In this document: piece after piece, positions 34,823 through 60,869 of the stretch
Layout of the letters: every line of letters begins with the position of its first letter
Numbering within the stretch: the first letter of the stretch is position 1
NCBI GenBank assembly: GCA_903960915.1
Contig: CAJCCO010000043.1
Coordinates: 6,574 to 70,573 of the forward strand
Direction: 5' to 3'
Length of the DNA: 64,000 nt
Source of the DNA: an uncultured beta proteobacterium
Lineage (GTDB): Bacteria > Pseudomonadota > Gammaproteobacteria > Burkholderiales > Burkholderiaceae_C
Program-made: the position numbers and the translations under genes
The notes under the pieces: model-generated
Databases searched by the model: none
Seen by the model: only the letters and a program-made list of their open reading frames with translations
What the model was told of the DNA's origin: nothing

Positions 34823-34823
34823 A

Positions 34824-37324: not shown

Positions 37325-39280
37325 TTATTTGGACCAGTAAATGTTGTCGACGTAAATCTTGGTGTTGGTGGCTGCGCCCTGCGTATTACCGGTCTTTTCG
37401 AAGCGGTCGGCGATCACAAAGGGGTTGGTCACCATGGTGAGGTCAAAGTACGACTTGGTCGGATCATAGTTTCCGTCCGCCCTGAATGCCATGGCGCCGT
37501 TTTTCTTCAATTCACTGATTGGAACTGAAACTTGATGCCAATTGCCATCACTGATGTAGCCATAGCCATCCGCATTGTTATTGCTGATTTTCATATAGAC
37601 ATCGTAGGCGGACGGGGTGAGGCCCTTACCAGTCAGGAACCCGACTTCAATCGGCCCGGGATAGGTGGTCATGATGCTGAAATTAAGCTTACCCGACTCG
37701 TAAGCACTGAGATCTGCGGTCACAGTGCCGTCGCCTGGCGCCACCACAATACCCCACCCCCAGGATACCGGCTGAGGTTTGATCACGATGCCGTGTGGAC
37801 TGTCGCCAGGTTCTCCTGTGACTGGCACGCCCGAGTCCTCTTCACCGCCAAAAGCCGTGGCCGGCGCGTCCCAGCCGAACCAGTTGGCGCCTGTGGCCAC
37901 GGCGGGCGAGGCGCCTGCGGGCACGGTGTCAGCGTAAACGGTGAAGCGGTTGCCTGTGACCACGGCATTCGTCACATCGGGCGCGTATACGGCATTGGCT
38001 TCGGTGTAGGTGCCGGCTTCATGGGTGTAGCCCTGCGCCTTCGGGTAGAGCGCCTGCACGACGTATCGAGCCTGGCGGTCTTTGTTGAACAGGCCCCACT
38101 TGTCGTCAGAGCCCTTCCACTGCTCGTCAAATGCTGCAAAGTAAAAGATGGACTTGGGGCCACCTTTGCCGGCCCGCGACTCGCTGGTCCAAGTGTTAAG
38201 GCGCTCTAAGTACATCTTCTGATTGACCGGATGGGCGCGGTTGCTCTCGCCGTTGGATGCCACGGCCTTCCAGCCGGTCTCTCCGATCACGATCGGCATG
38301 TTGGGAAAGCCCACACTGTCGAGGTGGGCGCGCACTGCCCCGTACTGCAGACGTGCAGCGGCAATCGATGCATCCATCATGGCAGTGGCTCGCAGAGGGC
38401 CTGCTTCTTCCCCAAACTGCTCCCAAACCCAAGTTGCTGGCGGATGAATGGTCTCTGCGAGCGGGTAGGTGTGCATGGCCACAAAGTCGATCACATCCAG
38501 CACGGCGCGCGGGTTCTTCTCCTTGGCGCCGGATTGTGCAAAAAACGCCCAGTTGTCGTCGGTGGTCACCGGCTGGGTCACTTGGCTGCGCACGCTCTTG
38601 ATGTAAGCAGCCATTTGCGACACTGACAGGGGGTTGAAAGACCAACTGACCATGGTCTCGTTACCGACGCTGAGGGCTACCACAATGTCGCTGTACTGCT
38701 TCGCCAGCGCGACACCGCGGGCAATTTCTGCCTTATTAAAGGCATCGTTACCACTGGCGATCCACACACCGAGCATCACCTTAATGTCCAGGTTGTTGTC
38801 GCGGATGATCCTCAGGATTTGTTTGCTCACTTTATCTGAGCTGTCGAAAAGCCTAATCAGGCGAAAATTGCCAGCAACCATCAAGTCCAAATCTTCCTTG
38901 ATATGCGCCGCAAAATTAGCACTGTCAGGTTCTTCTAGTGTCGGAGGCTCGCCGGTGGGAATGGCCACTTGGTTGTTTGATAAGGCCCTCAAAATATTGT
39001 TTGAATCATAGGCGCATTGACCTACGTAAACGTAAACTTTTGGTCTTATCTCGACTTTGCATTCAAGCGTACGGAAAGGCGCGTAGTTGACTGCGTTACG
39101 CGAGGCCACTTCTGCGCTGAGCGCGCGTGGCGAGGCGACCCCTGTTACCACGGAGCCACCTCCCCCGCAGGACGCAAGAACAAGCGCTGCTGACAGCGCC
39201 AGGGCTGCGCGCGCTAGTAGGTTGGATATTGGGAGAATTTGCAATAATTTCATGAGACTAACCTTTGCCATGGGCATCAA
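37325..39280 (-). CDS. GH17 beta-1,3-glucan hydrolase/transglycosylase lipoprotein with C-terminal CBM-like domain
   Basis: 651 aa with lipobox LVLASC|GGGG. GH17 catalytic motifs LSVGNETMVSW and VIGETGWKAV are present. The C-terminal ~190 aa beta-rich module ends IYVDNIYWSK. Confidence 0.8.
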   Translation of the reverse strand: MMPMAKVSLMKLLQILPISNLLARAALALSAALVLASCGGGGSVVTGVASPRALSAEVASRNAVNYAPFRTLECKVEIRPKVYVYVGQCAYDSNNILRALSNNQVAIPTGEPPTLEEPDSANFAAHIKEDLDLMVAGNFRLIRLFDSSDKVSKQILRIIRDNNLDIKVMLGVWIASGNDAFNKAEIARGVALAKQYSDIVVALSVGNETMVSWSFNPLSVSQMAAYIKSVRSQVTQPVTTDDNWAFFAQSGAKEKNPRAVLDVIDFVAMHTYPLAETIHPPATWVWEQFGEEAGPLRATAMMDASIAAARLQYGAVRAHLDSVGFPNMPIVIGETGWKAVASNGESNRAHPVNQKMYLERLNTWTSESRAGKGGPKSIFYFAAFDEQWKGSDDKWGLFNKDRQARYVVQALYPKAQGYTHEAGTYTEANAVYAPDVTNAVVTGNRFTVYADTVPAGASPAVATGANWFGWDAPATAFGGEEDSGVPVTGEPGDSPHGIVIKPQPVSWGWGIVVAPGDGTVTADLSAYESGKLNFSIMTTYPGPIEVGFLTGKGLTPSAYDVYMKISNNNADGYGYISDGNWHQVSVPISELKKNGAMAFRADGNYDPTKSYFDLTMVTNPFVIADRFEKTGNTQGAATNTKIYVDNIYWSK

Positions 39281-40626
39281 AACGAATACACCACGCCTAC
39301 TGTGAACCAGTTGCCTTGGTCGGTGACGCGCGAATCTATCTTGGTGAACGATTCGTTGTCTGGTGCTGACATGGGCGAGAGTCCCACCCGGCCGTAATGC
39401 ACCATGCCGGCTTGAACGTTGAATTGCACGCCCTGACCGTAGTCGTACTTCAGTCCGGCGGTGTTGATCAGGGCCGAGTTGCTCTGGCCGCGTTCGCTAG
39501 GGTTAGCGGTCTTGGCCTTGCCCAGGTAGACCATGCCGGTAGAGGCTGTCCATTGGCCCATGCGGTAAAGCACACCCAACATGAGGTCTGTGGAGCGCGC
39601 TGAATAGCCAGGGTTGCCAATGCCGCTGCGCACGCCGTCCCAGTCCACGTTGAACATCTCGTTCCAAGTATTGCCACCGGTCATAACGGCATTGGCACCA
39701 CTCCAGAAATTTCGCCGAATGCCACCCGACACCTCCCACTGGCTGGTGACCTGGTAGCGCGCCATCAGCATGGCTATGCCCTGGTCAGAGCCGGTGAGCT
39801 TGCTGTCGTCTTGCGCAAACGGTGTCAAGCCGGTGAATGGGCCATGCGACCAGGCCATGGGCGTGCCGTTTTTGCCGTGCTGCAGAGTGGCGTCCATCAC
39901 CAGGTCACCCTTGTGGAACTGGGTGTACAGCTCCATGAAGCTGGGTTTGTTGATCTTGAAAGCGGTATTGCCCTGGTCGTACGTGCCTTCCACCACCAAG
40001 TCGCCATCGGCCACATCAAACATGCGCGAGGTGTAGCGCACCGCGCCCGTCAACATGCCGTAGCCCGCGCCGCTGGAGCCCCAGGCGCTGGCTACCCCGA
40101 CGTTGGTGCCGTAGGGGTAATCGGCCACGCTCCAGCCGCGTGTGGTCATGGCGCCAATGCGCAGGCTGCCAAAATCTTCGTGGCTAACCGCCACATTTTT
40201 TTCGTACCAGAAGTCCTTCACGTCCACCTCGCCATCGCGCCAGCGTTGGCTCAGCAGGCCTGACAACTTGACGCCTTTGCCCAGGTCGTACTTGAAACCC
40301 AGGTAAGGTTGTATCTGGGAGAAGGCGCTGGTCTGCGTGTCGAACTTGGCCCCTTGAACCAACTCGTCGGCCCAGATGCGCTGCTTGTTCTCGGTGGGGA
40401 AGAGCTGGCAGTCCTTGCATTGGTTGCTGCCAGCGCCCACGGACACTTCGGCAAACCCGGTCAGGCTGAACATGCCATTGGGGCCGAAGTCCAGGGCCTG
40501 GCCTAGGCTGGGTAGGCCAGCCAGGCAAAGAGCTGCGTACAGCCGGCCCAGCCTCGCCCCCGAGCGGGGTGCCAAAGACAGGGCGGATGAAGTACGCTGG
40601 GAAAGAGGAGGAGGTTTACAAATCAT
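39277..40626 (-). CDS. Outer-membrane beta-barrel porin (candidate glucan-oligosaccharide channel)
   Basis: 449 aa with signal peptide ...LCLAGLPSLGQA|LDF. It is Gly/aromatic-rich with alternating strands and a C-terminal VGVVYSF. It has a 4-nt overlap with the GH17 gene and a LacI-type operator 18 nt upstream of its start. Confidence 0.7.
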   Translation of the reverse strand: MICKPPPLSQRTSSALSLAPRSGARLGRLYAALCLAGLPSLGQALDFGPNGMFSLTGFAEVSVGAGSNQCKDCQLFPTENKQRIWADELVQGAKFDTQTSAFSQIQPYLGFKYDLGKGVKLSGLLSQRWRDGEVDVKDFWYEKNVAVSHEDFGSLRIGAMTTRGWSVADYPYGTNVGVASAWGSSGAGYGMLTGAVRYTSRMFDVADGDLVVEGTYDQGNTAFKINKPSFMELYTQFHKGDLVMDATLQHGKNGTPMAWSHGPFTGLTPFAQDDSKLTGSDQGIAMLMARYQVTSQWEVSGGIRRNFWSGANAVMTGGNTWNEMFNVDWDGVRSGIGNPGYSARSTDLMLGVLYRMGQWTASTGMVYLGKAKTANPSERGQSNSALINTAGLKYDYGQGVQFNVQAGMVHYGRVGLSPMSAPDNESFTKIDSRVTDQGNWFTVGVVYSF

Positions 40627-40857: not shown

Positions 40858-43122
40858 ATGAAGTTAAACCCCGGCTGGCTTTTGTTTTTGGGTCTGGCCT
40901 GCACCCCCGGTTCCCCGCTCTACGCGCAGCCGGTAAAAGCGGGAGCGGGTAATTATTTTCAAGCCCCCAAGGGCGCAGACCGCGTGGTGCCCAAGGCCCC
41001 TTACCGCACCCCCGCCATGCTGGCCAAGGCAGCCCCCACCAACCAATGGTATTCAGCGTTGATTTTTAGCGCCGAGCCTGAAGTGCTGTTTGCGCACCCG
41101 CTCACCGTGCGTGCCACCAAGACCGGGCTGGAGTTGGCCCTGCCGAGCAAAGAGGTGGTGCCCACGGAACGCAAAGACGTTGAAATTCACTACCCGCACC
41201 GCGACCCGCTGCTGATTTCTTCTACCGCCATGGCGGCGGCTCAACCGCTGCTGGCCAAAGCCGGTGACTGGTCCATTGACATTGCGCTGGGTGGCGCGCA
41301 AGCGCCCTTGCTGGCTACCGTGGCGCATGGCAGTCCGTATGTGTATTTTCAGTTCAAGCAGGGCGACCTGAGGCTGCAGTTGCCGGCAACCGCGCAGCGT
41401 ATTGAGCAGGCCGATGCGCGGGTGTTGGCCTTGCGCGTCAAGAACAAGTCTTACGCCTTGTTTGGCCCCAGCGGTGTGCGCTGGGAGCAGGTGTCTGCTA
41501 CCGAGTGGCTGGGCCGTCTGCCCCCCGGTAAGGGGTATGTCTCGGTTGCTGCATTGCCTGACGAGCAGCCGGCCACACTGGCCTTGCTGGCACGCCATGC
41601 CTACGCCTATTTGCAAGACACCCGGGTAGATTGGCGGGTGGACAGTGAGAGCAGCGAAGTGGAGACCACGTTCAAAGCCAGCACCCAGGTTATGGAAGGT
41701 GAAGATGCAGGCCCGCTCTTGGGCCTTTACCCGCACCACTGGAACGGCAATGCCCAGGTACAGCCTAAATTAGGCCCCGCCTTTGACACCTTGCGCGGCG
41801 CCATTCGGCTACTGGCTGCGCCTGAGTTCAAAACGCGCACCGCTTACAACGGCTTTGTGCCGTATTGGCCTGGGGTGAAAGCATCGCCACGCCAAGATGA
41901 ACTCAAAACCCTCATGACTGCCGACAAGCGCAACGCGCGCCGAATGATGTTGGAGTTGGGCAACGGGCCGTACTGGCAAGGAAAAGGCTTGCAGCGCATC
42001 ACCAAGTTGATGGACGTGGTGGAGCAGCAAGGCGACCTGGAAGGGCGCGACCAGTTGCTCAAAACGCTCAAGACCCGCATCGAATCCTGGTTCTCGGGGG
42101 ACAGCAGCAAAACCTATTTTCACTACGACAAACAGCTCGGCACGGTGGTGGCGTATCCAGAAGAATATTTCAGCATTGAGCAGATGAACGACCACCACTT
42201 TCACTACGGCTACTGGATTCGTGCCATGGCCGATATCGCCCTGCGTGACCCCCAGTGGGCCGCCCAAGACAAGTGGGGCGGTATGGTTGATTTGCTGGTG
42301 GCAGATATTGCCACGGGCAAACGTGGCGGCGCAGACTTTCCCTTTGTGCGTAACTTTGACCCCTATGAAGGCCACTCCTGGGCCTCGGGTGTGGGCTTGG
42401 GCGCATTCGGCAACAACCAGGAATCCTCCTCGGAGGCCATCAATGCCTGGGCAGGCTTGATCATGTGGGGCGAGATCACCGGTAACCGCCAGTTGCGCGA
42501 CCTTGGCATGTACCTCTACACCAGCGAGATTGAGGCCATCAACTACTACTGGTTCGATATTCATGGCAAGGTTTTCCCGCCCGAGTACAAACATGTAGAA
42601 ACCAGCATGCTGTTTGGCGGCAAGTACGCCCACAACACCTGGTGGACCGACGAGCCACGGCAAATCAAGGGCATCAACTTATTGCCCATCACCACCTCAT
42701 CCACCTACCTGGGGGCTAACCCCCAGTTTGTGCAGCGCAGCCTAAACACACTCAAGCCCGATACCGCCATCTTCAACGGCCGGGGCAAGTACGCCGAGCC
42801 TAAAGACATTTGGCAAGACATCTTCGCCAAGTACCTGGGCCTGGCCGACCCGGTGCAAGCGCTGAACCAGTGGGACCGCTGGGGCTCGGTGGAGCTGGGC
42901 GACACCCGCTCACACGCCTTGCACTGGTTGCTGAACCTGCAAGACATGGGCCCACCAGACCTGAGCACGCGTGCCAACACCACTTTTTACAGCGTCTTCA
43001 AGCGGGCTGATGGCCGCAAAACTTACCTGGCTTACAACGCGGGAAAGACGCCCTTGCTGGTCAAGTTTTCAGACGGCAAGGAAATGAAGGTTGAACCCGG
43101 CACGCTGGGTCAAGCGCAGTAA
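40858..43122 (+). CDS. GH81 endo-beta-1,3-glucanase (secreted)
   Basis: 754 aa with signal peptide MKLNPGWLLFLGLACTPGSPLYA|QP. GH81 hallmark blocks are MNDHHFHYGYWIRAMADIA, RNFDPYEGHSWASG and ESSSEAINAWAG. Confidence 0.85.
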   Translation: MKLNPGWLLFLGLACTPGSPLYAQPVKAGAGNYFQAPKGADRVVPKAPYRTPAMLAKAAPTNQWYSALIFSAEPEVLFAHPLTVRATKTGLELALPSKEVVPTERKDVEIHYPHRDPLLISSTAMAAAQPLLAKAGDWSIDIALGGAQAPLLATVAHGSPYVYFQFKQGDLRLQLPATAQRIEQADARVLALRVKNKSYALFGPSGVRWEQVSATEWLGRLPPGKGYVSVAALPDEQPATLALLARHAYAYLQDTRVDWRVDSESSEVETTFKASTQVMEGEDAGPLLGLYPHHWNGNAQVQPKLGPAFDTLRGAIRLLAAPEFKTRTAYNGFVPYWPGVKASPRQDELKTLMTADKRNARRMMLELGNGPYWQGKGLQRITKLMDVVEQQGDLEGRDQLLKTLKTRIESWFSGDSSKTYFHYDKQLGTVVAYPEEYFSIEQMNDHHFHYGYWIRAMADIALRDPQWAAQDKWGGMVDLLVADIATGKRGGADFPFVRNFDPYEGHSWASGVGLGAFGNNQESSSEAINAWAGLIMWGEITGNRQLRDLGMYLYTSEIEAINYYWFDIHGKVFPPEYKHVETSMLFGGKYAHNTWWTDEPRQIKGINLLPITTSSTYLGANPQFVQRSLNTLKPDTAIFNGRGKYAEPKDIWQDIFAKYLGLADPVQALNQWDRWGSVELGDTRSHALHWLLNLQDMGPPDLSTRANTTFYSVFKRADGRKTYLAYNAGKTPLLVKFSDGKEMKVEPGTLGQAQ

Positions 43123-43146: not shown

Positions 43147-45330
43147 ATGATGTCATTTTTTCTTTTCCCGCTGGGGTCCAAGTGGCGTCTGGCTCACGCC
43201 TTTGCACTCGTTTGCCTTGCACTGTCGGCATGCGGTGGGGGTGAAAAGGTCGCAGACAGCGTAGCGCCCACATTGGTCGTATCCGACGCATCGCCTGGGG
43301 CAAGTGCAACAGGGGCATGGACCGTGTTGTTTGCTTTTAGCGAAAGTGTGGGAACGAGCTTTAGCGCGGAGGATATCGCCCTCACCGGGAGTATCGCGGT
43401 AGGGGCGTTGGAAAAAATTGATGAAAAAAACTACAGCCTGCGGCTAACACCAGACGCCAACAGCAGTGGTGTACTGACCCTGAGCGTGGCCGCCAATAAG
43501 TTCAGCGACGTGGCGCTCAACAACAACGCACAAGCCAGTAGTTACAGTAAAAATTACAACACCCAAACCGTCACTTCGGACTGGGTAATGGACTGGAGTG
43601 AAGAGTTCAATGGAACGCAGCTCAACACCAACGTCTGGAGTTTTGATACCGGTTCAGGTGGCTGGGGAAACAATGAATCACAGTACTACCAAGCCAGCAA
43701 CGCCACCGTGAAAGATGGATTTCTAACGATCACGGCCAAGCAAGAGCGGGTTGGAGACGCCGATTACACCTCGACGCGTATCCAGTCCTCGCGCAAAAAA
43801 AGTTTTACCTATGGGCGCTTTGAAATGCGCGCCAAGTTACCCGCCACCCAAGGTATGTGGCCTGCGTTTTGGTTGCTGGGCGATGCCTGTAACTCGTTTA
43901 ATTTGTATGGTGGCACGGTCAACTGGCCCGACTGTGGCGAAATTGACATCATGGAAATGATTGGCGGCCTAACCGACCGAACCGGCGACTACACATCCTA
44001 CGGCACCTTGCATTACCGCAATGCCTTGAACTTCAACCCGGCCCCGTCTTTCTCGAACAGAAATGCCAAGCCACTGTCTGAAGATTTTCATGTCTACACC
44101 ATGGACTGGACGCCCCAAGGCTTTACCTGGTATGTCGATGGCATCGCCTTCGGTACCAAATTGATCAGCGCTGACATGGCGGCTTTTCACAAACCCTATT
44201 TCATGCTGCTGAATCTGGCCGTAGGGGGTAATTGGGGTGGTTGGGTTGACAGCTCCACGCGCTTCCCTCAGACCTTCGTGATTGACTATGTACGCCACTA
44301 CACCCGCCCTTGGCCGGCCAAGAACAGCACGGCTGGTTTACCTTCAAGCTGGCACCTGGCCAGCGACCCCCACCTGAACGTGGCGGGCGGCACGCAAACG
44401 GGTGCGCAGCCGGTGGTCTCGCTGGGTGAGACAGCCATTTCTTGGTACAGCCCATTTCTCACCGGCAGCTACGATGCGGGGGCCTGGACCGCCAGCATCT
44501 GGACCCTGGCCAGTTCAGGCAGTTCACCTGTTCGCGCCCGCATTTACAGGCGATCGGCCACGACCGGGTTCGAGTCGATGCTTGGAGAAACCACCGTAGA
44601 CCCAGCCACCACGGGCAGCGGCAACCATGTCACTCGCTTCACGTTCAAGGCCATGCCAGCTATGGTGCTGAGCAACGAAAGTATTCGCCTTGAATTAAGC
44701 AAGCTCAGCGGCCCCATCTTGAAACTGGTTGTCAACGGCAATGATTTCGACTCCAACCTGACCATGCCCTGGAGTACGGCGGGCACTTACGGCGCTTACC
44801 CCTCGGCTGCATCGTTGGCATTTCCCGCCGCCACTGCATCAACAAATGCCGGCAACACCAGCACCGCCGCTGCAACCTTGGGCGTCTACGCTGATACCGC
44901 CCTGCTGTCGAGTTGGCCTGGTTTGAAAGCTCCAGACGCCTACGCCAGAGGACAGGTTCAAGACACCCTGCTCCTGCCTTTTGAAGGCAGCCACAGCCTC
45001 AGTGTTAACTTGAACTTTGATGGCAGTGGCTGGCAGTTTGTGGGTGAGCCCCTGGACATTACCCCCTACGCCAAGCTGCGTTTCATGATCAAGACCAGCT
45101 CAGCCCCTCAGTACGTGCGCGTGCGCCTGGCCGGCACGGGGCAGGTGGGCAGCGTGCCCTTGTCGGCTTACCTGGCTTCTACGTCTGAATGGCAAGAGAT
45201 TGTGATCCCCCTGTCGGCCTTTGGCACAGCTGCGCTGGGCGCTGTTTCGGTGCCTTTCAGTCTTGAATCAGTGGGCGGTGCTGCCAGCTTTAGCGCCCAG
45301 GTGGACAAGGTTTACTACTCGAAAAATTGA
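43147..45330 (+). CDS. GH16 laminarinase-type beta-1,3(4)-glucanase lipoprotein (Ig-like stalk + GH16 + extra domain + CBM-like C-terminus)
   Basis: 727 aa with lipobox LALSAC|GGG. An N-terminal Ig-like module carries FSESVGTSFSAEDIALTG. GH16 motifs are GWGNNESQYY, GMWPAFWLLG and catalytic GEIDIMEM. Confidence 0.85.
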   Translation: MMSFFLFPLGSKWRLAHAFALVCLALSACGGGEKVADSVAPTLVVSDASPGASATGAWTVLFAFSESVGTSFSAEDIALTGSIAVGALEKIDEKNYSLRLTPDANSSGVLTLSVAANKFSDVALNNNAQASSYSKNYNTQTVTSDWVMDWSEEFNGTQLNTNVWSFDTGSGGWGNNESQYYQASNATVKDGFLTITAKQERVGDADYTSTRIQSSRKKSFTYGRFEMRAKLPATQGMWPAFWLLGDACNSFNLYGGTVNWPDCGEIDIMEMIGGLTDRTGDYTSYGTLHYRNALNFNPAPSFSNRNAKPLSEDFHVYTMDWTPQGFTWYVDGIAFGTKLISADMAAFHKPYFMLLNLAVGGNWGGWVDSSTRFPQTFVIDYVRHYTRPWPAKNSTAGLPSSWHLASDPHLNVAGGTQTGAQPVVSLGETAISWYSPFLTGSYDAGAWTASIWTLASSGSSPVRARIYRRSATTGFESMLGETTVDPATTGSGNHVTRFTFKAMPAMVLSNESIRLELSKLSGPILKLVVNGNDFDSNLTMPWSTAGTYGAYPSAASLAFPAATASTNAGNTSTAAATLGVYADTALLSSWPGLKAPDAYARGQVQDTLLLPFEGSHSLSVNLNFDGSGWQFVGEPLDITPYAKLRFMIKTSSAPQYVRVRLAGTGQVGSVPLSAYLASTSEWQEIVIPLSAFGTAALGAVSVPFSLESVGGAASFSAQVDKVYYSKN

Positions 45331-45448: not shown

Positions 45449-45476
45449 TGAAAGCGCTTTCATGAATGCGCTTTCA
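45449..45476. promoter_or_regulatory. Tandem LacI-type operators upstream of the glycan-binding lipoprotein gene
   Basis: Perfect TGAAAGCGCTTTCA (45449-45462) is directly followed by the imperfect copy TGAATGCGCTTTCA (45463-45476). They lie 48 nt upstream of the ATG at 45524. Confidence 0.7.
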
Positions 45477-50278: not shown

Positions 50279-50344
50279 AGCCTCAGTCCGTGGCGGGCTG
50301 CGTGTATTATCAAAAGCGTCATGATCCTTGCAAAGCTTTATTCA

Positions 50345-51209: not shown

Positions 51210-51219
51210 ATTTGTCCTT

Positions 51220-51585: not shown

Positions 51586-52367
51586 TGCGCGCCCGTTCTT
51601 GGCCCTTAGTGGCCCCACAACGCGGCTTCACCCTGATTGAGTTGCTGGTGGCGATCAGCCTGATGGCGGTGATGTCGGTGTTGAGCTGGCGCGGGCTTGA
51701 TGGCATGACCCGCTCGCAGAGCCGCTTGCAACAGCATGGCAACGAGGTGCAGGCCCTGCAGGCCGCGTTGGCGCAATGGGGCGTTGACCTGGATGCGATG
51801 GCGATTCAACCCCAAACGCCTAGCCTGGACTGGGATGGCCGGGCCCTGCGTATCGTGCGCCAGGGTGTGCTGCCAGGCGAGGGGCTGCGCGTGGTGGCCT
51901 GGACGCGGCGCAATGTGGGCTTGACGAGTTCAAATGACCCAACTGGCCAGTGGCTGCGCTGGCAGTCGCCCCCGCTAACCACGCGCGTGGCCCTGTTGCA
52001 GGCCTGGCAACAGGCGGCCGACTGGGGGCAATACGTCAGTGCTGCGGACGCCCAGCGCGAGGTGCGCCTGGTGCCGCTGTCGCAGTGGCAAATTTTTTAT
52101 TACCGGCAAGACGCCTGGAGCAACCCTTTGTCCAGCGCGGGTACCCCTGCCACCACACCTACACCCGAACCCGCTCCTGCACCTGCACCTGCACCCGCAC
52201 CTTCCCCCCCACAAGGACAAGGGCAGGGCGCCCAAGCCCCGGTTCAGGGCAAGCCCGAAGCACTGCCTGACGGTATTCGGCTGGTGCTGCAATTGGCCCC
52301 GGGACAGGCGGTGAGCGGCCAGCTCACGCGCGACTGGATTCGCCCCGGCGTGGGAGGTGGCAAATGA
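51585..52367 (+). CDS. gspJ: Type II secretion system minor pseudopilin GspJ (with Pro/Ala/Gln-rich insertion)
   Basis: ...PQRG|FTLIELLVAISLMAVMSVLSWRGLDGM. TGATG overlap with gspI. A low-complexity TPATTPTPEPAPAPAPAPAPSPPQGQGQGAQAPVQGKPEA segment lies near the C-terminus. Confidence 0.8.
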   Translation: MRARSWPLVAPQRGFTLIELLVAISLMAVMSVLSWRGLDGMTRSQSRLQQHGNEVQALQAALAQWGVDLDAMAIQPQTPSLDWDGRALRIVRQGVLPGEGLRVVAWTRRNVGLTSSNDPTGQWLRWQSPPLTTRVALLQAWQQAADWGQYVSAADAQREVRLVPLSQWQIFYYRQDAWSNPLSSAGTPATTPTPEPAPAPAPAPAPSPPQGQGQGAQAPVQGKPEALPDGIRLVLQLAPGQAVSGQLTRDWIRPGVGGGK

Positions 52368-53347
52368 CACGGCTGCGTAGGCATGCCAGGCCACAAAGTG
52401 GTGCGGCCATTTTGAGCGCCATGCTGACGGTTGTGCTGGTGGCCTCTTTGGCCGCCAGCATGCTGTGGCAGCAATGGCGCAACGTCGAGGTAGAAGCGGC
52501 ACAACGCACCCGAACGCAGTCTGCCTGGGTGCTGTTTGGCGCACTGGACTGGGCGCGGTTAATTTTGCGTGAAGACGCCCGCAAAGGCGGCGCCGACCAC
52601 CTGGGCGAACCCTGGGCGGTGCCGCTGGCGCAAACCCGGTTGTCCACCTTTTTGTCGAACGACCGCAGCGATGCCCTGGCGGCGCAGGCCGAGCAAGCCT
52701 CGTTTGTATCGGGGCAGGTGCAAGACCTGCAAGCGCGCCTCAATGTCACCAACCTGTTGCAGGACGGCAAGATTCATTCGCCCAGCCAACTGGCTTTTGC
52801 CCGCCTCTTTGCGCAACTGAACCTGCCTGAATCGGAGTTGAAGGGCTTGACCGAGCAACTGCTGGCCGCCCACGGCGCCACGCTGGTAGCCAAGCCCAAT
52901 ATGGCGGCCCCTTTGTGGCCGCAAGAGGTGGCGCAACTCGCCTGGTTGGGCTTGTCCAACCGCAGCCTGCGGCGCTTGCAGCCCTTCATCACGCTGTTGC
53001 CCGAGCGCACGCCGGTTAACCTCAACACCGCCTCGGCCGAGGTGCTGTATGCCTGCGTGCCAGGCATTGAAATGGCGGACGCCCAGCGCCTGGTGCAGGC
53101 GCGCAGCCAGTCGCCCTTAACCACGTTGGAGGACGCCCGCAAAGCGCTGGGGCTCAATAAATCGCCTTTCAATGACTTGGCGCACAGCGTGGCTACGCGT
53201 TACTTTGAAGTCAGCGGCCTGTTGCAAATAGACCAGAGCACGGTCCATGAGTTGTCGCTGTTGCGCCGCGACGGGGCGGAGGTCAAAGTTTTGTCCCGTC
53301 AACGTGGTGCCAGCGGGCTGCCAGCCCAGGCAGTCGCCCTACAATGA
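52364..53347 (+). CDS. gspK: Type II secretion system minor pseudopilin GspK
   Basis: 327 aa. N-terminal GAAILSAMLTVVLVASLAASMLW. The size, the HhH-like region LNTASAEVLYACVPGIEMADAQRLVQAR and the position fit. Confidence 0.8.
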   Translation: MTRLRRHARPQSGAAILSAMLTVVLVASLAASMLWQQWRNVEVEAAQRTRTQSAWVLFGALDWARLILREDARKGGADHLGEPWAVPLAQTRLSTFLSNDRSDALAAQAEQASFVSGQVQDLQARLNVTNLLQDGKIHSPSQLAFARLFAQLNLPESELKGLTEQLLAAHGATLVAKPNMAAPLWPQEVAQLAWLGLSNRSLRRLQPFITLLPERTPVNLNTASAEVLYACVPGIEMADAQRLVQARSQSPLTTLEDARKALGLNKSPFNDLAHSVATRYFEVSGLLQIDQSTVHELSLLRRDGAEVKVLSRQRGASGLPAQAVALQ

Positions 53348-53366
53348 TTCGAGAGACCTGCCGCGC

Positions 53367-54608
53367 ATGACCACCCTGATCGTTACCCCGCCAACCGACC
53401 CCACTGACCCGCACGCGTTGTGGGACTACCTGCTCTCGTCGGATGGACGAGTGGTGGGTGAACACGCCAGTGTCAGCCTGCTTCAACTGCCTAAGCGCAA
53501 CGCTTCCGGCGACCAGGTGGTGGCGCTGGTGCCGGCAGCGCGTTTGTCCTGGCATGCGGTGCAGTTGCCCGCCGGTTCTTTGAGTCAGCGCCTGTTTCAG
53601 GACCGCGCAGCACCGCGTTTGCGCGCCATTCTGGAAGGGCTGCTGGAAGACCATTTGCTGGACGACCCCGCCCAGCTTCATTTCGCGCTGGAGCCGCAAG
53701 CGCGCAACGATGCGCCGGTGTGGGTGGCCGTCTGTGACCGCACCTGGCTGCGCGCGGCTTTGCAGGCGTTGGCGCAGTCGGGCCACGTGGTGAGCCGTGT
53801 CGTGCCCGAGTTCACCCCGGGTGAGCCTGCGTTGTTGCAAGTGGTGACGGCGCCCCAGGAGAGCGCTGCCGGCACGGCGCAGCTGGTGGCTGCCAATGCA
53901 CAAGGTGTATCTGTCTGGCCCTTGTCCAGCGCCTCACTCGCTGCGTTGGACTGGCCACCAGAGACGCCGGTGCTGTCCGAGCCTGCGTGGGCGCAGCAGG
54001 CAGAAGCGCTTTTGGAAAAACCTGTGACCCTGCAAGCCAGCACCGAGCGGCGTGTGTTGGCGCTGCAATCAGCCTGGGACTTGGCGCAGTTTGACTTGCT
54101 CAGCTCGCCGCAGCGCCGCATCTGGGCGCGCTGGCGCGATGCCGCTGCCACGCTGCTGCAGGCGCCGCGCTGGCGACCCGCCCGGTTGGCTTTGATGACC
54201 GTGGTGGTGGTCAACTTGCTGGGGCTGAATGCCTGGGCCTGGCGCGAGCAGGCACAACTGCAAGAGCAAACAGCGGCCATTCGCCATGTGTTGACCAGCA
54301 GCTTCCCCCAGGTCGTGGTGGTGGTCGATGCGCCTGTGCAAATGGCGCGCGAAGTGGCTGCCTTGCAGCAAGCCAGTGGCGCGCTGTCGCCGCGCGATCT
54401 GGAGAGTCTGCTCAGTGCCGTGGGTGCGGCAAGCCCCGCCCCGGCACAGCCCAAAACATTGGACTATGCCGCGGGTGCCTTGCGTCTGCAAGGTCTGACG
54501 CTCAATGCTGAGCAACTCAGGCTGCTCAGTGGCCGGCTCCAGCCTCTGGGTTACAGCGCCAATGCCGTGGGCGATTCGCTTAGCGTGCAACCTAAGGGCA
54601 CGCCATGA
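53367..54608 (+). CDS. gspL: Type II secretion system protein GspL
   Basis: About 413 aa from the ATG at 53367 (MTTLIVTPP). A cytoplasmic domain, a single TM (LALMTVVVVNLLGLNAWAW) and a periplasmic domain are present. Position is between gspK and gspM. Confidence 0.75.
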   Translation: MTTLIVTPPTDPTDPHALWDYLLSSDGRVVGEHASVSLLQLPKRNASGDQVVALVPAARLSWHAVQLPAGSLSQRLFQDRAAPRLRAILEGLLEDHLLDDPAQLHFALEPQARNDAPVWVAVCDRTWLRAALQALAQSGHVVSRVVPEFTPGEPALLQVVTAPQESAAGTAQLVAANAQGVSVWPLSSASLAALDWPPETPVLSEPAWAQQAEALLEKPVTLQASTERRVLALQSAWDLAQFDLLSSPQRRIWARWRDAAATLLQAPRWRPARLALMTVVVVNLLGLNAWAWREQAQLQEQTAAIRHVLTSSFPQVVVVVDAPVQMAREVAALQQASGALSPRDLESLLSAVGAASPAPAQPKTLDYAAGALRLQGLTLNAEQLRLLSGRLQPLGYSANAVGDSLSVQPKGTP

Positions 54609-55108
54609 ACCCTACGAGTTTTATGAGTTTTAGGCCGCTGTGGCAAGCCCGTTGGCGCGCCTTGTCGGGCCGTGAGCAAACCCTGCTGTTGTCTGCGCTG
54701 GCTTTGGTGCTGGGCGCTGCGCTCTGGTGGCTGGCCCTGGCGCCCGCTTTGACGGTGTTGCGCACGGTGGACAGCCAGCGCACCGCGCTCGATGCGCAGT
54801 GGCAGCAAATGCAAAGCCTGCAGGCGCAAGCCAGCAGCTTGCAGGCCCAGGCCCGCCTGGCGCCTGAAGAAGAGCGCCGTTTGCTGGAGGCTTCACTCAA
54901 ACCACTGGGGGCAGGCAGCGTGCTCAAGGTGGACGGTGAACGCGCCACCATCAACCTGCGGGCGGTACCGGCCCAGGCGCTGGCGCTGTGGCTCACGCAA
55001 GTGCGCCAAAACGTGCGCCGCACCCCTGTTGAGGCGCATCTGGTGCGCAACGCCGCAGGCAGTTGGGACGGTACCGTGGTGCTGTCGCTGGCTCCGGGCG
55101 TGCGCTGA
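54605..55108 (+). CDS. gspM: Type II secretion system protein GspM
   Basis: 167 aa. WQARWRALSGREQTLLLSALALVLGAALWWLAL has the single N-terminal TM typical of GspM. ATGA overlap with gspL. Confidence 0.75.
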   Translation: MNPTSFMSFRPLWQARWRALSGREQTLLLSALALVLGAALWWLALAPALTVLRTVDSQRTALDAQWQQMQSLQAQASSLQAQARLAPEEERRLLEASLKPLGAGSVLKVDGERATINLRAVPAQALALWLTQVRQNVRRTPVEAHLVRNAAGSWDGTVVLSLAPGVR

Positions 55109-55117
55109 CCGCGCTAT

Positions 55118-55160
55118 ACAAAGATAGACAAAGATAGACAAAGATAAACGAAGATAAACC
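55118..55160. repeat. 10-bp tandem repeat (about 4.3 copies) filling the gspM-gspN spacer
   Basis: ACAAAGATAG ACAAAGATAG ACAAAGATAA ACGAAGATAA ACC, directly abutting the gspN ATG at 55161. Confidence 0.9.
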
Positions 55161-55979
55161 ATGGCCCGCCCCTCCTTTTTTCAGTCGACTGCCCGCACCC
55201 GCAGCACGCTGCCGTCAGCGCCGTGGGCCTGGGCGGTGGGCGGCCTGCTGCTGGGCTGTTTGCTGATGTTGCTGTGGCAAGCCCCGGCCCGCTGGCTGGC
55301 CAGTGGGGTGCACACGGTCACCCAAGGGCGTGTGGTCTTGCAGGACGCACGCGGCACAGTCTGGCAGGGCTCGGCCCGGCTGCAGCTGAACGGTGGAGCC
55401 GGTAGCTTGGACGCCGCCGCCCTGCCGGGTCGTCTGAGCTGGCAGCTGCGCCGTGACGGCACCGCACTGCAAGCCCACTTATTGGCCGACTGTTGCATGC
55501 AGCAGGCCCTGCAGGTGCAGGGGTCGCTGGGTTGGGGTGGCTTGCAATTGGCCGTGTCAGACAGCCAGTCGCAGTGGCCGGCCGCGTTGCTCATTGGCTT
55601 GGGTGCGCCCTGGAACACGGTGCTGCCCGAGGGGCAGTTGAGCCTGTCCACACAAGGTCTGGCAGTACAGCTGCAGCAGGGCCGCAGCAGTGTGCGCGGC
55701 AGTGTTCGGCTGGAAGCGCAAGCCCTGTCGTCGCGCCTGTCCACCCTCAAGCCCATGGGCAGTTACCGCTTCACGCTGACCGGCGGCGCGCTGCCGAGTT
55801 GCGCCCTGGAAACCTTGGACGGCAGCTTGCGCTTGTCGGGCAAGGGCCAGTGGGTGGCCGGACGCTTGCGTTTTGACGGCGAGGCCAGCGCCACCCCCGA
55901 GCGGCAAGAGGCACTGTCGAATCTGTTGAACATCATTGGTCGACGCGATGGCGCACGGGCCATCATCAAAGTAGGTTGA
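55161..55979 (+). CDS. gspN: Type II secretion system protein GspN
   Basis: 272 aa with an N-terminal TM WAWAVGGLLLGCLLMLLW, then VVLQDARGTVWQGSARL... The pattern and position are typical of GspN. Confidence 0.7.
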   Translation: MARPSFFQSTARTRSTLPSAPWAWAVGGLLLGCLLMLLWQAPARWLASGVHTVTQGRVVLQDARGTVWQGSARLQLNGGAGSLDAAALPGRLSWQLRRDGTALQAHLLADCCMQQALQVQGSLGWGGLQLAVSDSQSQWPAALLIGLGAPWNTVLPEGQLSLSTQGLAVQLQQGRSSVRGSVRLEAQALSSRLSTLKPMGSYRFTLTGGALPSCALETLDGSLRLSGKGQWVAGRLRFDGEASATPERQEALSNLLNIIGRRDGARAIIKVG

Positions 55980-55985
55980 ACGTAT

Positions 55986-58106
55986 ATGACAACTCCAAAC
56001 TTTTACCGACCCGCCTGGGCGCTACGGACTGCCACCCAGCAGTTGCTGTTGGCCTCTGCGCTGGCCTTGCTCGCTTGGCCTGTGGGTGCCCAGACCACGC
56101 CAGTGTCCAAGCCCGGCGAACCCGCCACGCTGAATTTCAGCAACGCGGATATTGAGTCGGTGGCGCGCACCATGGCGGTTATCACTGGGTACAACCTGGT
56201 GGTCGACCCGCGCGTCAAGGGCACCCTCACGCTGGTGACTGAAAAACCGGTGAGCCGTGAGACAGCCATGAACCAGTTTTTGGCGGCCCTGCGCTTGCAG
56301 GGGTTCACCATGGTCGAGTCAGCCGGTTTGTACAAGGTGATTCCAGAGGCCGACGCCAAACTGCAAAGTGGCGCCCTTAATCTGGGCGACGGTGTCCCAA
56401 GCAAGGTGGTGGGCAACCAGATCACCACGCAAATTTTCAAACTCAACTTTGAGCAGGCCGCCAACCTGGTACCTGTGCTGCGCCCGCTCATCAGCCCCAA
56501 CAACACCATCAATGCCAACGCGGGCAATAACTCGCTGGTGATTACCGACTACGCAGACAACCTGCGTCGTTTGGCCCGCATCATTGCGGCCATGGATGTG
56601 TCCAACGCCAGCGAAGTTGAGGTGCTGCCGCTGAAGCACGCCATTGCGGTAGACCTGGCGCCCTTGGTGCTGCGTCTGGTGGAGTCGGGCAGCGCCCCTG
56701 CAGCAGGTGCGGGCCAAGCCGACAGCACTTTCAAAACCTTGCTGATTGCCGAGCCGCGCTCCAATTCGCTGTTGCTGCGTGCGGCCAATGCGGCCCGGGT
56801 GGCGTTGGTGAAGTCACTGGTGGAGAAGCTGGACCAACCCGAAGCACAGGGCAGCACCGACCCGGCGGGCAACATTCATGTGGTGTACCTGAAGAATGCC
56901 GATGCCACCAAATTGGCGGCCACCTTGCGTGCCGCTATGAGTGGCGAAGTGCGCACGCCAACCAGCTCGCAGTCGGGCGCACCCGCTGGCGCCTCGACCG
57001 CTGCAGCGGCTTCCAGCACCGGCGGCCAAGTGCAAGCCGATGCGGCCACCAACTCACTCATCATCACCGCGCCCGACCCGCAGTACCGCCAGTTGCGCGC
57101 CGTCATTGACAAGCTCGATGCCCGACGCGCCCAGGTGTTTGTGGAGAGCCTGATTGCCGAGGTCAGCGTCGACAAGGCGGCCGAATTTGGCGTGCAATGG
57201 CAGGGCGCCTTGGGTAAAAGCGGCGACTCTCTGATTGGCCTGTTGGGCTCCAACTTTGGCAGCGGTGGCAGCAACATCATCAACCTGGCCACTGGCGCAG
57301 CCAGCAGCACGGTGGCGCCGTCGCGCGGCCTCAACGTGGGCGCGCTCAAGCAGACCAATGGCGTGTATGTGCTGGGATTTCTGGCACGTTTTCTGGAAGA
57401 GTCGGGCAGCGGCAATGTGCTGTCCACGCCCAACTTGCTGACGCTGGACAATGAAGAGGCCAAGATTGTTATTGGGCAGAACGTGCCCTTTGTCACGGGT
57501 CAATTCACCAACACGGGGGCGGGCAGTGGCAGCTCGGTTAATCCGTTTCAGACGATTGAGCGCAAGGATGTGGGGCTCACGCTCAAAGTGAAGCCGCAAA
57601 TCAGCGAGAACGGTACCGTCAAGCTGGCCATTTACCAGGAGGTCTCTAGCGTGCAGGCCTCCACGCTGAACGCCAGCAATGGCCCCACCACCAACAAGCG
57701 AACCATTGAGTCCAACGTATTGGTGGACGACGGCGCCATTGTGGTGCTGGGCGGTTTGTTGCAAGACGAGTACTCGGGCAGCCAGGAGAAAGTGCCCGGT
57801 CTGGGTGATGTGTCCTTTTTTGGCAACCTGTTCAAAAGCGAAACCCGCAGCCGCAAGAAAACCAACCTGATGGTGTTTTTGCGACCCGTGGTGGTGCGCG
57901 ACGCTGCGGCCAGCGACCGCCTGTCGATGGACCGCTACGACCAGATGCGCTCGGGCCTGAAAGAGGCCCAGCCGCTGCCCAACCAGGTACTGCCCATCAA
58001 TGAAGCCGCCGTTTTGCCGCCGCTCGCCCCGGCCTCAATAGCTGCACCTAAAGCAGCGCCTGAAGCGCCTAAGGCACCGCTGGCGCCTCTCGCGAACAAG
58101 CCCTGA
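55986..58106 (+). CDS. gspD: Type II secretion system secretin GspD
   Basis: 706 aa with a signal peptide and N0-N3 domains ([31 protein letters not shown]). The secretin core is [28 protein letters not shown]...[17 protein letters not shown]. Confidence 0.9.
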
Positions 58107-58137
58107 GTTTTTCTGGCCACCCCCACACCTCACCACC

Positions 58138-59589
58138 ATGGCCATGCGCTACCCGCTACCTTACGCCTTTGCCCGAAGCCACCAACTGCTGCTGGAAGAG
58201 CAGGCCGGTGCGCTAACCCTGTTGACCCACCCGCAGTCGCTGGCTTCAGGCGTGAGCGAGGTGATGCGCAAGTACCCGTCCTGCCAACGCCAGCCCATGG
58301 CGCAGGCGCTGTTGGTGCAACGCATCAGCACGGCCTATGCGCAGGGTGAATCGAGTGCGGCGGCGGTGGTCAGCGAGGTGGAGAGCGATGTCGACCTGTC
58401 GCGCATGATGCAGGAGCTGCCGGCCATTGAAGATCTGCTGGAAACCTCGGACGACGCGCCCATCATCCGCATGCTCAACGCCTTGCTCACGCAAGCCGTG
58501 CGCGACGGCGCCAGTGACATTCACATCGAGCCCTATGAGCGCCACTCCAGCGTGCGCTTTCGGGTGGACGGCGGTCTGCGCGAAGTGGTGCAACCCAACC
58601 GTGCCTTGCATGCCGCGTTGATCTCGCGTCTCAAAATCATGGCCGAGCTGGATATTGCAGAACGTCGCTTGCCGCAAGACGGCCGTATTTCGCTGCGCAT
58701 CGGCACGCGTGCGGTGGACGTGCGCGTGAGCACGCTGCCCAGCGCGCACGGCGAGCGCGCAGTGTTGCGTCTGCTGGACAAGTCGGAGGGCCGCATGAGC
58801 CTGGAAGCGCTGGGCATGCAGGGCGAGGTGCTGGCCCGCTTTGAGCAGCTGATTGCGCAACCGCACGGCATCATTTTGGTCACCGGCCCCACCGGCTCGG
58901 GCAAAACCACCACGCTGTACGCCGCGTTGAGCCGGCTCGATACGCAACACAGCAACATCATGACGGTGGAAGACCCGGTGGAGTACGAGCTGGCCGGAAT
59001 TGGCCAGACCCAGGTGAACGCCCGGATTGACCTGACCTTTGCCAAGGCCCTGCGCGCCATTTTGCGGCAGGACCCCGACATCATCATGATTGGCGAAATT
59101 CGTGATTTTGAGACCGCGCAGATTGCCATTCAGGCCTCGCTCACCGGTCACCTGGTGCTGGCAACCCTGCACACCAATGACGCCGTCAGCGCGGTGACGC
59201 GTTTGACCGACATGGGGGTGGAGCCGTTTTTACTCAGCTCTTCTTTGCTGGGTGTGCTGGCGCAGCGCCTGGTGCGCAAATTGTGTGTGACGTGCAAGCG
59301 CGAGGTGGCGCCGGCTGCTTTGGCGAACCCGACGCGGCCTTCCATGGCCTACGCCCCTGTGGGCTGCGCGGCCTGCGGCCACACCGGCTATGCCGGCCGC
59401 AACGGCGTGTTTGAACTGCTGGTGACCGACGAGGCGATTCGCGCCCAGATTCACAACCGCGCCTCAGAGGCCGATATCCGCACAGCCGCTCTGGCCGCCG
59501 GTATGACGCTGATGCGTGACGATGGCGAGCGCCTGGTGCAAAGTGGTGTGACCTCCCGTGAAGAGCTGCTGCGCGTTACCCGTGATTGA
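58138..59589 (+). CDS. gspE: Type II secretion system ATPase GspE
   Basis: 483 aa with Walker [10 protein letters not shown], Asp/His boxes and a tetracysteine C..C...C..C (CVTCKRE...[10 protein letters not shown]). Confidence 0.9.
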
Positions 59590-59642
59590 GCGCAGGCATG
59601 CTGCCGCCTCGCTTGCCTTGACCGACTGATAAAGCCCCAGCC

Positions 59643-60869
59643 ATGCCTGCCTATTCCTACCAAGCCCTCAACGCCGAAGGCCAGAGCCGAAAGGGCCTGA
59701 TCGAGGCCGACTCGGCACGTGCCGCGCGCAGCCTGCTGCGCGCCCAGGCCTTGGTGCCGCTGCGTGTGGAGCTTGCGGGCCAAAGCGCCGATGCCGGCAC
59801 TGGCTCGCTGAGCTGGGGTTGGGGTGAGCGCCGGGTGTTCAGCGCCCATGCGCTGGCCGTCTGGACGCGCCAACTCGCCGGCTTGGTGGGCGCGGGTCTG
59901 CCGCTGGAGCGGGCCTTGTTTTCTCTGAGCGAAGAGGTCGAGCTGGAAGGGCAGCGCCAACTGGTGGCTGTGTTGCGTGCCGAAGTGAATGCGGGCAGCC
60001 CCTTTGCCCGTGCGCTGGCGCAGCATCCCAAGCAGTTCTCAGCGATTTTTATTGCGGTCATTGGTGCTGGCGAGCAAAGCGGCAACCTGGGCTTGGTGCT
60101 GGAGCGCCTGGCCGACGACCTGGAGGAGCAGCAGGCCCTCAAGTCCAAGCTGCTAGGCGCTGCGCTGTACCCGGCCATTGTGTCCTTGGTGGCCCTGGGC
60201 ATCGTGCTGTTTTTGGTGGCCTACGTGGTGCCGCAAGTGGCCCATGTGTTTGCCGGCAGCAAGCGAGCCTTGCCGTTCTTGACGGTGTTGATGATGGGCA
60301 TCAGTGACCTGGTGCGCAGCTACGGCTGGCTGCTGCTGGTCTTGCTGTTTGTGGGCGGGGTGTTGGGGCGCCTGGCACTGGCCCGGCCGGCGCTGCGGCT
60401 GCGCTTTGATGCCTGGTTTTTGCTGCTGCCGGTGCTGGGCAAGCTCTCGCGCAGTTACAACACGGCGCGCTTTGCCGGCACGCTGGCCATGCTGGCGGCT
60501 GCGGGGGTGCCCATATTAAAAGCCTTGCAAGCGGCCGCAGAAACTTTGTCCAACCAGGCCATGCGGGCGGATGCCCTGGACGCCTTGGTGCTGGTGCGTG
60601 AGGGCGCGCCGCTGGCCTCGGCCTTGGCGCAGAAAAAACGGTTCCCGGGCTTGCTGGTGATGTTTGCGCGCCTAGGTGAGCAAACCGGCCAGTTGCCGTT
60701 GATGCTGCAACGCGCCGCCCGCCAACTCAGTGCTGAAGTGCAGCGCCGCGCCATGGCACTGGCCACGCTGCTGGAGCCCCTGCTGATTGTGGCCATGGGC
60801 GGCGTGGTGATGCTGATTGTGCTGGCCGTTTTGCTGCCCATCATTCAGATGAACCAGCTGGTCAAGTAG
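59643..60869 (+). CDS. gspF: Type II secretion system inner-membrane platform protein GspF
   Basis: 408 aa. MPAYSYQALNAEGQSRKGLIEADSARAARSLLRAQALVP. It has duplicated GspF domains and three TM segments. Confidence 0.9.
   Translation: MPAYSYQALNAEGQSRKGLIEADSARAARSLLRAQALVPLRVELAGQSADAGTGSLSWGWGERRVFSAHALAVWTRQLAGLVGAGLPLERALFSLSEEVELEGQRQLVAVLRAEVNAGSPFARALAQHPKQFSAIFIAVIGAGEQSGNLGLVLERLADDLEEQQALKSKLLGAALYPAIVSLVALGIVLFLVAYVVPQVAHVFAGSKRALPFLTVLMMGISDLVRSYGWLLLVLLFVGGVLGRLALARPALRLRFDAWFLLLPVLGKLSRSYNTARFAGTLAMLAAAGVPILKALQAAAETLSNQAMRADALDALVLVREGAPLASALAQKKRFPGLLVMFARLGEQTGQLPLMLQRAARQLSAEVQRRAMALATLLEPLLIVAMGGVVMLIVLAVLLPIIQMNQLVK

Follow-up and report, generated by a model that had tools for sequence, protein, structure and literature searches.

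This case study concerns a 64,000-nucleotide stretch (the window) of contig CAJCCO010000043.1 from an uncultured beta proteobacterium, and its locus for type II secretion (the secretion system being abbreviated T2SS). The window belongs to a Rhodoferax-like member of the Comamonadaceae, and its best GspG match is a Rhodoferax metagenome-assembled genome (MAG) at 86% identity. The region seems best explained as a LacI-regulated island of about 23 kb for the utilisation of beta-1,3-glucan (laminarin-type), set between gspC and gspG of an otherwise ordinary T2SS locus. Four of its products are predicted lipoproteins beginning with Cys-Gly-Gly-Gly: a glycoside hydrolase (GH) of family GH16, another of family GH17, a 618-aa putative binding protein, and a 557-aa protein called LP557 here. 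We consider it probable, at a modest level of confidence, that all four are anchored on the cell surface in a T2SS- and GspN-dependent way. This reading is favoured because the four lipoproteins meet the published sequence criteria and the T2SS has gspN. The island ends with LP557 and its neighbour P380, a 380-aa protein.

The gsp operon runs gspG-H-I-J-K-L-M-N-D-E-F on the plus strand (50345..60869), with gspN at 55161-55979 (PF01203 T2SSN, E=3e-26), gspD at 55986-58106, gspE at 58138-59589 and gspF at 59643-60869. Pfam or NCBIfam matches were found for Gsp G, I, K, L, M, N, D, E and F (NCBIfam for GspF and GspL); GspH and GspJ match the N_methyl prepilin motif only, and their names rest on gene position and on tblastn against relatives. 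An earlier note on this DNA had described a complete T2SS; as delimited there it is not complete, for it leaves out gspC, found 23 kb upstream on the minus strand (26902..27372) as a 156-aa short form without PDZ domain (PF11356 T2SSC, E=3.6e-7). Judging by relatives, the most likely start of gspG is 50345 and not 50321. The note's count of 16 plus-strand genes from GH81 (40858) to gspF (60869) was verified. No prepilin peptidase (GspO/PilD) was found among the scanned open reading frames (ORFs) of the window, the scan leaving out about 9-13, 21-24 and 62-64 kb; the enzyme is presumably encoded elsewhere in the genome, as is common.

The T2SS operon was then placed in its family. A survey with GspG, taking one genome per species, yielded 80 Comamonadaceae/Sphaerotilaceae loci (related loci are cited below by L numbers). 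All sufficiently long loci have the identical gspG-to-F order, gspN included, except L084, where GspM fell under the reporting threshold. L009 alone has LP557 and P380 upstream of gspG, and the other 79 species have no island there. The operon in the window is the orthologue of this family-wide, general T2SS and not a dedicated one, the island sitting at the locus in 1/80 species. The dedicated Pul-like apparatus proposed by the earlier note thus did not survive the survey.

The island was inserted into this general locus. A gspC homologue lies directly upstream of gspG, in divergent orientation, in about 55 loci of the survey, and the close relatives L012, L013, L016, L021, L026 and L031 have the order rpe-gspC-gspG. 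In the window rpe and gspC are adjacent as well, and about 22.9 kb (27384-50305) part gspC from gspG. Comparison with the island-free relatives L016 and L021 places the left junction at an ATTAT copy (27379..27383) directly after CATGGCGCG, whose CAT, read on the other strand, is the start codon of gspC. The left end in the window reads CATGGCGCGATTAT followed by GCC (27370-27383), and the right end reads GCGTGT followed by ATTATCAAAAG (50306-50311). L016 and L021 have CATGGCGCGATTATCATGG at the matching site, and island-free relatives read CAT-GGCGCG-ATTATC with the gspG ATG about 45 nt later. The right ATTAT copy (50306-50310) is contained in a TATTAT -10-like box on the plus strand (50305..50310), and ATTATC upstream of gspG is kept in both island-free and island-bearing relatives. 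The roughly 55 loci with gspC next to gspG, the rpe-gspC-gspG synteny and the duplicated ATTAT at the junctions together show an insertion between gspC and gspG. The 5-bp ATTAT at both ends may reflect either a target-site duplication or microhomology. Neither a transposase nor an integrase was found in the island, and its ends gave no convincing terminal inverted repeats or mobility genes.

On the gspC strand, in the window (27373-27383) and in the same six rpe-gspC-gspG relatives, a GATAAT or CATAAT box stands before gspC. It lies only about 6 nt before the start codon, which suggests that the gspC mRNA has no leader or almost none and that the divergent promoters of gspC and gspG overlap. 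The gspC-gspG arrangement is not universal in the clade, because the Rhodoferax MAGs L014 and L015 (8765-9715) have no gspC upstream; their gsp operon follows apparent ftsA, ftsZ and lpxC, named from N-terminal sequences. A possible scar of the P380 3' end (TTCT[A/G]GCTAAACT) was considered upstream of gspG in island-free L010, L014 and L015, where the upstream gene is lpxC or a HAD gene, and was rejected, as the similarity stops short of coding sequence.

Read from the gspC side, the insert opens on the plus strand with a GlcD-like FAD-linked oxidase gene (27548..28975; PF02913, PF01565), which is not present between gspC and gspG in relatives, and continues with the LacI-family repressor of the island (29062..30117; PF00356, PF00532). 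The genes of an ABC sugar importer follow, also on the plus strand (30307..35879), and encode a binding protein, two permeases and an ATPase; the gene of a GH1 beta-glucosidase (33449-34822) lies among them. The binding protein and ATPase have Pfam matches of their own; GH1 and the two permeases were named via Pfam on the syntenic genes of L139-L141 together with the window translations, and the window GH1 scores 67% against L121 in tblastn. On the minus strand there are then a GH30 glycosidase (35900..37255; PF02055, E=3.6e-82), with no evident signal peptide in its translated N-terminus, the GH17 beta-1,3-glucanase lipoprotein (37325..39280; PF00332), and a 449-aa porin-like outer-membrane protein (39277..40626). 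The last was recognised from its sequence, which ends in YSF, and has no Pfam match. Its gene adjoins those of GH17 and GH81, an arrangement kept in relatives, and it is a candidate oligosaccharide channel.

The remaining island genes are on the plus strand. GH81 is an endo-beta-1,3-glucanase (40858..43122; PF17652) with an ordinary SPI signal peptide and is not a lipoprotein; its homologues have signal-peptide cleavage sites of the form A|QPVK. It is followed by the GH16 glucanase lipoprotein (43147..45330), which carries a Big_12 domain (PF00722, PF19078), and by the 618-aa lipoprotein (45524..47380), a candidate surface glycan-binding protein (SGBP). The latter had been labelled as carrying multiple carbohydrate-binding modules (CBMs). 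Internal repeat analysis does find three repeats of about 150 aa, but Pfam detects Big_12 only and the CBM part of the label is inference; residues 523-582 match PDB 8qx6. Each repeat finishes with the signature Y-(I/F)-D-(D/N)-(I/L)-x-(F/I), and GH17 (KIYVDNIYW) and GH16 (QVDKVYY) have similar C-terminal ends. This hints at a common type of binding module, and BLAST between the GH17 and GH16 modules gave no significant similarity. LP557 (47466..49139) and P380 (49136..50278) complete the island. Neither a SusC-like TonB-dependent transporter nor a SusD-like lipoprotein is among the island proteins scanned.

The sequence feature that ties the four lipoproteins together is their N-terminus. The earlier note had read a canonical lipobox in each of them, and the translations show exactly what it claimed: LASC-GGGG in GH17, LSAC-GGGE in GH16, ITAC-GGGA in the 618-aa protein and LAAC-GGGN in LP557. 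All lipoboxes were called from the sequence pattern alone, and the Cys is followed by Gly-Gly-Gly in 4/4. When homologues of the four with a lipobox were taken from related loci, 55/58 had the same start, as against 6/38 other lipobox-like ORFs of L001-L138 plus the window. Of these six, three are the Limnohabitans lipoprotein encoded beside gspC, and two are multihaem cytochromes of MtrC-like type; the sixth, judged by its place beside the porin gene, appears to be a GH17 homologue that is truncated. Among the LP557 homologues listed, 92/120 have C-GGG; in most of the others the regular expression caught a Cys inside the protein, and GSG, GGA, GGS or SGG follows the Cys in about four genuine lipoboxes. 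About 10 convincing housekeeping-type lipoproteins of the clade begin CAS, CAT, CSK and similar. The CGGG start is therefore more than chance, and even a small, regex-based background sample shows that it is not generic to the lipoproteins of the clade. The earlier suggestion that it belongs to a sorting signal was right in spirit, since it matches a published GGG motif, and is for the same reason not new.

Two other lipoproteins near gsp genes bear on the motif. L082 encodes, at 1-606 on the minus strand and about 9 kb away from gspG, a truncated lipoprotein that begins CGGNDDDGQ, which resembles the hybrid Gly/Asp motif of Burkholderia T2SS lipoproteins. The Limnohabitans lipoprotein, 876-952 aa long, begins CGGGGG and is encoded directly downstream of gspC in L023 (6781-9411, minus strand), L066 (6645-9503) and L087 (6764-9478). 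Over its first ~135 residues it can be aligned with the LP557 family (115 aligned columns; hhalign probability 86%, E=5e-6), and beyond them it has no Pfam match.

The published precedent comes from Acinetobacter baumannii, whose T2SS-dependent lipoproteins require GspN (Roberts, Gura and Sandkvist, mBio 2025, PMC12802150). The sorting motif there lies at P2'-P4' and is GGG (Gly/Ser-rich) or ND(N/D); it was required experimentally, for display that depends on GspN and GspD, and similar Gly/Asp-rich motifs are reported for lipoproteins of B. pseudomallei and S. oneidensis that depend on the T2SS (PMC12802150). Following this precedent, the four Cys-Gly-Gly-Gly lipoproteins of the island would be acylated at the inner membrane, the GGG motif would let them avoid or bypass Lol sorting, and GspN would hand them to the T2SS, which would leave them anchored at the cell surface. 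In this position they would bind and cut glucan, much like the SGBP and GH16 of a Bacteroidota laminarin polysaccharide utilisation locus (PUL). Oligosaccharides would enter via the porin-like protein and possibly also P380, GH81 would trim them, the ABC transporter would import them, and the cytoplasmic GH1 and GH30 would finish hydrolysis. The T2SS itself would be shared with other cargo and keep its own promoter core.

The regulation of the island agrees with a shared T2SS, as far as operator content can tell. The perfect palindrome TGAAAGCGCTTTCA occurs in four copies, plus one copy with one mismatch, all of them in island promoters. One lies upstream of the ABC genes (30212..30225), two in the divergent porin/GH81 promoter region (40644-40657 and 40798-40811, conserved in related loci), and two adjacent ones upstream of the 618-aa gene (45449..45476), where they mark a separate promoter. 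Allowing up to 3 mismatches gives 12 matches where 3.6 are expected, and no shuffle reached 12; the same operator positions are kept in about 20 related loci. As in LacI-family regulons, a repressor gene is thus accompanied by repeated palindromic operators in target promoters. Because operators sit before the ABC genes, porin/GH81 and the 618-aa gene, the island comprises several LacI-controlled units: the ABC genes, porin-GH17, GH81-GH16, and 618-aa-LP557-P380. The earlier note had raised the question of whether the regulon includes the gsp genes. No operator was found upstream of gspG or gspC in the window or in any of the related T2SS loci examined, which puts the T2SS outside the LacI regulon by operator content.

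Transcription across the P380-gspG junction may still occur. The gap from the P380 stop to the gspG start is 43-67 bp in the window, and gspG keeps its own promoter core, the -10-like box described above. The earlier note saw no obvious terminator before gspG. A GC-rich hairpin of -11 kcal/mol is in fact predicted after P380 on the plus strand (50284..50300), and analogous hairpins follow P380 in related loci, but the hairpin has no clear U-tract. It is possibly a partial terminator. A canonical intrinsic terminator after P380 was looked for and rejected, there being only hairpins without U-tracts, and read-through from the P380 operon into gspG is possible.

The linkage of island and T2SS was followed through the contexts of P380 homologues. 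In 14 distinct loci P380 is followed by gspG after 22-83 bp. P380 is the last island gene in all loci, and LP557 and P380 are always together and always form the gspG junction. In L130 (1-2000) the order is P380, 25 bp, gspC on the minus strand and then gspG, with the island on the other side of gspC; its T2SS is more distant (GspD 68% identical), and it looks like an independent juxtaposition. L103 and L104 (L104:1-12845), which are one lineage, have an LP557-P380 pair that appears split by frameshifts. It lies some 7 kb downstream of gspF, and the minus strand between them holds two large ORFs of 441 and 505 aa, both uncharacterised; this copy could be decayed, relocated or an assembly error. 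About 30 loci bear the island, or at least the terminal LP557-P380 cassette, elsewhere in the genome, with unrelated neighbours that include an HDOD-domain gene, genes for acetyl-CoA synthetase and a pseudouridine synthase, clpS/clpA and dnaJ. The left flank of the island in other T2SS-linked lineages was sought via LacI homologues; the LacI-ABC-GH1 module of L139-L141 stands beside mutL, a cbb operon or a pabB-like gene, which is uninformative about gspC in those lineages.

In a tree of concatenated Gsp proteins the island-bearing loci all fall in one Rhodoferax-like clade, interspersed with island-free loci. The P380 tree can account for the linked state only with 5 or more changes, and 30 bootstrap replicates gave 5-6. 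With 14 linked loci, about 30 unlinked ones and at least 5 changes on the P380 tree, linkage is neither obligatory nor one-off. The earlier note had asked whether the T2SS-glycanase linkage is conserved in other genomes, and the answer goes both ways, as it recurs in the 14 loci but the ~30 are placed elsewhere. Possible causes of the recurrence are an integration or recombination hot spot at gspC/gspG, exchange via the conserved gsp flanks, and selection for proximity.

The LP557-P380 cassette is the least familiar part of the island. The P380 start overlaps the LP557 stop by 4 nt, so the two are translationally coupled. The AF2 model of P380 is an outer-membrane beta-barrel (pLDDT 77) for which Foldseek finds generic barrels with TM of at most 0.5. 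P380 has no Pfam family, and its own family numbers 191 cluster representatives in 1.84 billion. The AF2 model of LP557 (pLDDT 87.5) begins with a tether, continues through a small beta-sandwich and a helical bundle, and closes with a C-terminal beta-sandwich. Foldseek of this model against the PDB gave no significant match, and no sequence match was found either; assigning a function from structure was therefore given up despite the confident model.

In L114 (1-8784) and L115 (1-11071) the cassette comes directly after a cluster of MtrA-like, MtrB-like and MtrC-like genes, whose MtrC-like lipoprotein (993-1054 aa, PF22113) begins C-GGGG. In L123 it stands alone. Because it is found after an MtrCAB-like cluster in L114 and L115, the cassette is not glucan-specific. 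Taken with its constant place at the gspG junction and the module that LP557 shares with the Limnohabitans lipoprotein, this weakly suggests that its role concerns T2SS surface lipoproteins generally. Two relationships for P380 were tried and dropped. As a small MtrB relative it failed, hhalign of the family against the L115 MtrB-like protein giving a probability of 0.3 (two distant P380 family members have sub-threshold PF11854 matches), and as a Slam-like exporter it has no DUF560 match, no periplasmic TPR domain and generic barrel matches only. The cassette might be an unrecognised accessory of T2SS surface-lipoprotein display, with the barrel docking or anchoring GGG-tagged lipoproteins as they leave the secretin. 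We regard this as quite unlikely, although it would explain why the cassette abuts gspG, follows the CGGGG MtrC cluster, stands alone in L123 and shares an N-terminal module with the Limnohabitans post-gspC lipoprotein.

Several points weigh against a T2SS-displayed laminarin system. Laminarin as the substrate is read from the GH families, and the background sample of lipoproteins was small and regex-based. GGG is reported in Pseudomonas as a Lol-avoidance signal, for inner-membrane retention (PMC12802150, discussion), so the motif alone is no proof of export. The ~30 unlinked loci function without T2SS adjacency, and the linkage carries little mechanistic weight. Gene content, motif conservation, insertion, operator distribution and recurrent linkage are observed; surface localisation and T2SS dependence of the four lipoproteins are what we infer. 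The main rival is periplasmic retention, in which the adjacency is incidental, the lipoproteins face the periplasm, oligosaccharides enter via the porin-like protein and P380, and the T2SS has no part. We think this unlikely. Reports of GGG and GDD as Lol-avoidance signals in Pseudomonas agree with it, as do two island outer-membrane barrels that could admit oligosaccharides, the ~30 homologous loci away from a T2SS and the lack of LacI operators at gsp promoters. However, a multi-repeat binder and endo-glucanases that act on a polymer of several kDa fit best outside the outer membrane. The same motif is carried by proven T2SS surface lipoproteins, and by the MtrC-like cytochrome in L114 and L115; gspN is conserved, and the gsp linkage has switched state at least 5 times.

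Two further explanations keep the lipoproteins at the surface or the T2SS in play and change the rest. P380 could itself act like Slam and be what exports CGGG lipoproteins, or flips them, across the outer membrane, leaving the T2SS irrelevant. The invariable place of the translationally coupled LP557-P380 pair at the island end, its company with an MtrC-like CGGG lipoprotein cluster, and the small size and Pfam-less state of the P380 family all speak for such a role; it is nevertheless very unlikely, as P380 lacks the DUF560 match and periplasmic TPR domain and resembles generic barrels only, its family has no experimental precedent, and the GGG motif with GspN is already a documented route. 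The most improbable of the explanations is the dedicated Pul-like system, in which the gsp operon is specialised for the glucan cargo and co-expressed with it as one unit. Its appeal lies in the co-directional genes, the short gap without canonical terminator, the junction repeated in 14 loci, and the CGGG lipoprotein genes that also stand beside gspC in L130 and Limnohabitans. It is hard to reconcile with a same-order operon in 80 species, 79 of them without the island at that locus, with an island that is an insertion splitting gspC from gspG, with a gspG that retains a -10-like box and gsp promoters without LacI operator, and with at least 5 linkage changes on the P380 tree. T2SS/GspN-dependent anchoring, by a general T2SS, remains the reading that we prefer.

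Elsewhere in the window (2200-15200) are ABC transporter genes, a phosphonate-binding protein, an amidohydrolase, a GntR/UTRA regulator and DUF1045. This cluster resembles a phosphonate (C-P lyase) utilisation locus and is unrelated to the island.

The closest known system is that of A. baumannii (InvL and others), which shares the lipobox followed by GGG at P2'-P4', GspN in the T2SS, and one general T2SS with several lipoprotein cargoes. The differences are that the cargo here is a full glycan-utilisation enzyme set of a freshwater betaproteobacterium, predicted to reach the surface, that the cargo genes sit inside the gsp locus, and that the ND(N/D) variant was not seen here. The Klebsiella pullulanase system (pulA, pulC-O) is likewise a T2SS-displayed lipoprotein glycoside hydrolase, display here being our reading, with a cargo gene that adjoins secretion genes at a divergent promoter region. 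The pul genes and pulA are co-regulated by MalT, whereas the LacI operators here are confined to the island and the T2SS is a family-wide general system. PulA has Asp at +2 instead of GGG, and PulN is needed for its surface display, according to the account of it in PMC12802150. In Shewanella, the surface lipoproteins MtrC and OmcA are GspD-dependent and begin with a Gly-rich stretch (PMC12802150), and the MtrC-like CGGGG lipoprotein that adjoins LP557-P380 in L114 and L115 recalls Shewanella MtrCAB. P380 differs in having no detectable relation to MtrB, and the function predicted here is glycan degradation and not electron transfer.

Among glycan systems, the laminarin PUL of Christiangramia forsetii encodes a lipoprotein SGBP with Ig-like and repeated CBM modules, and a GH16_3 lipoprotein with an Ig-like module (10.1101/2023.09.07.556657). 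The island resembles it in having, in one locus, an Ig-like and repeat-module lipoprotein and a GH16 lipoprotein. Unlike Bacteroidota PULs it has no SusC/SusD pair, uptake would run via the porin-like protein and the ABC importer, and export would use the T2SS instead of the Bacteroidota lipoprotein export signal. Saccharophagus degradans has many lipobox carbohydrases and CBM proteins, including a laminarinase (PMC2386152), and polysaccharide use by Cellvibrio japonicus needs the T2SS (Gardner and Keating 2010, as cited in PMC4285296). Those two are Gammaproteobacteria whose genes are dispersed and not in an island within the gsp locus, and no LP557-P380 cassette is described there. Nothing specific on a laminarin locus of Rhodoferax or the Comamonadaceae was found in the literature.

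T2SS-displayed CGGG lipoproteins are thus the best-supported mechanism, of a kind that was established before. The novelty lies in a predicted system of this kind that makes up a complete laminarin-utilisation set in freshwater Comamonadaceae, in the insertion of the island inside the gsp locus, and in a lipoprotein-barrel cassette without Pfam family or annotated relative. The handling of acylated cargo at the outer membrane is listed as an open question by the mBio authors (PMC12802150), and the repeated placement at the gsp locus together with LP557-P380 gives a testable lead on it. If the T2SS-dependent reading is true, lipobox plus GGG would be a simple sequence rule for predicting T2SS surface cargo in Burkholderiales, and the GspN/GGG lipoprotein pathway would be widened from pathogens to environmental carbon cycling. 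Abundant freshwater Comamonadaceae would then own a surface-anchored glycan-harvesting apparatus that is the functional equivalent of a Bacteroidota PUL, in which a general, GspN-containing T2SS, lipoproteins tagged with GGG, a porin and an ABC importer stand in for the Bacteroidota parts.

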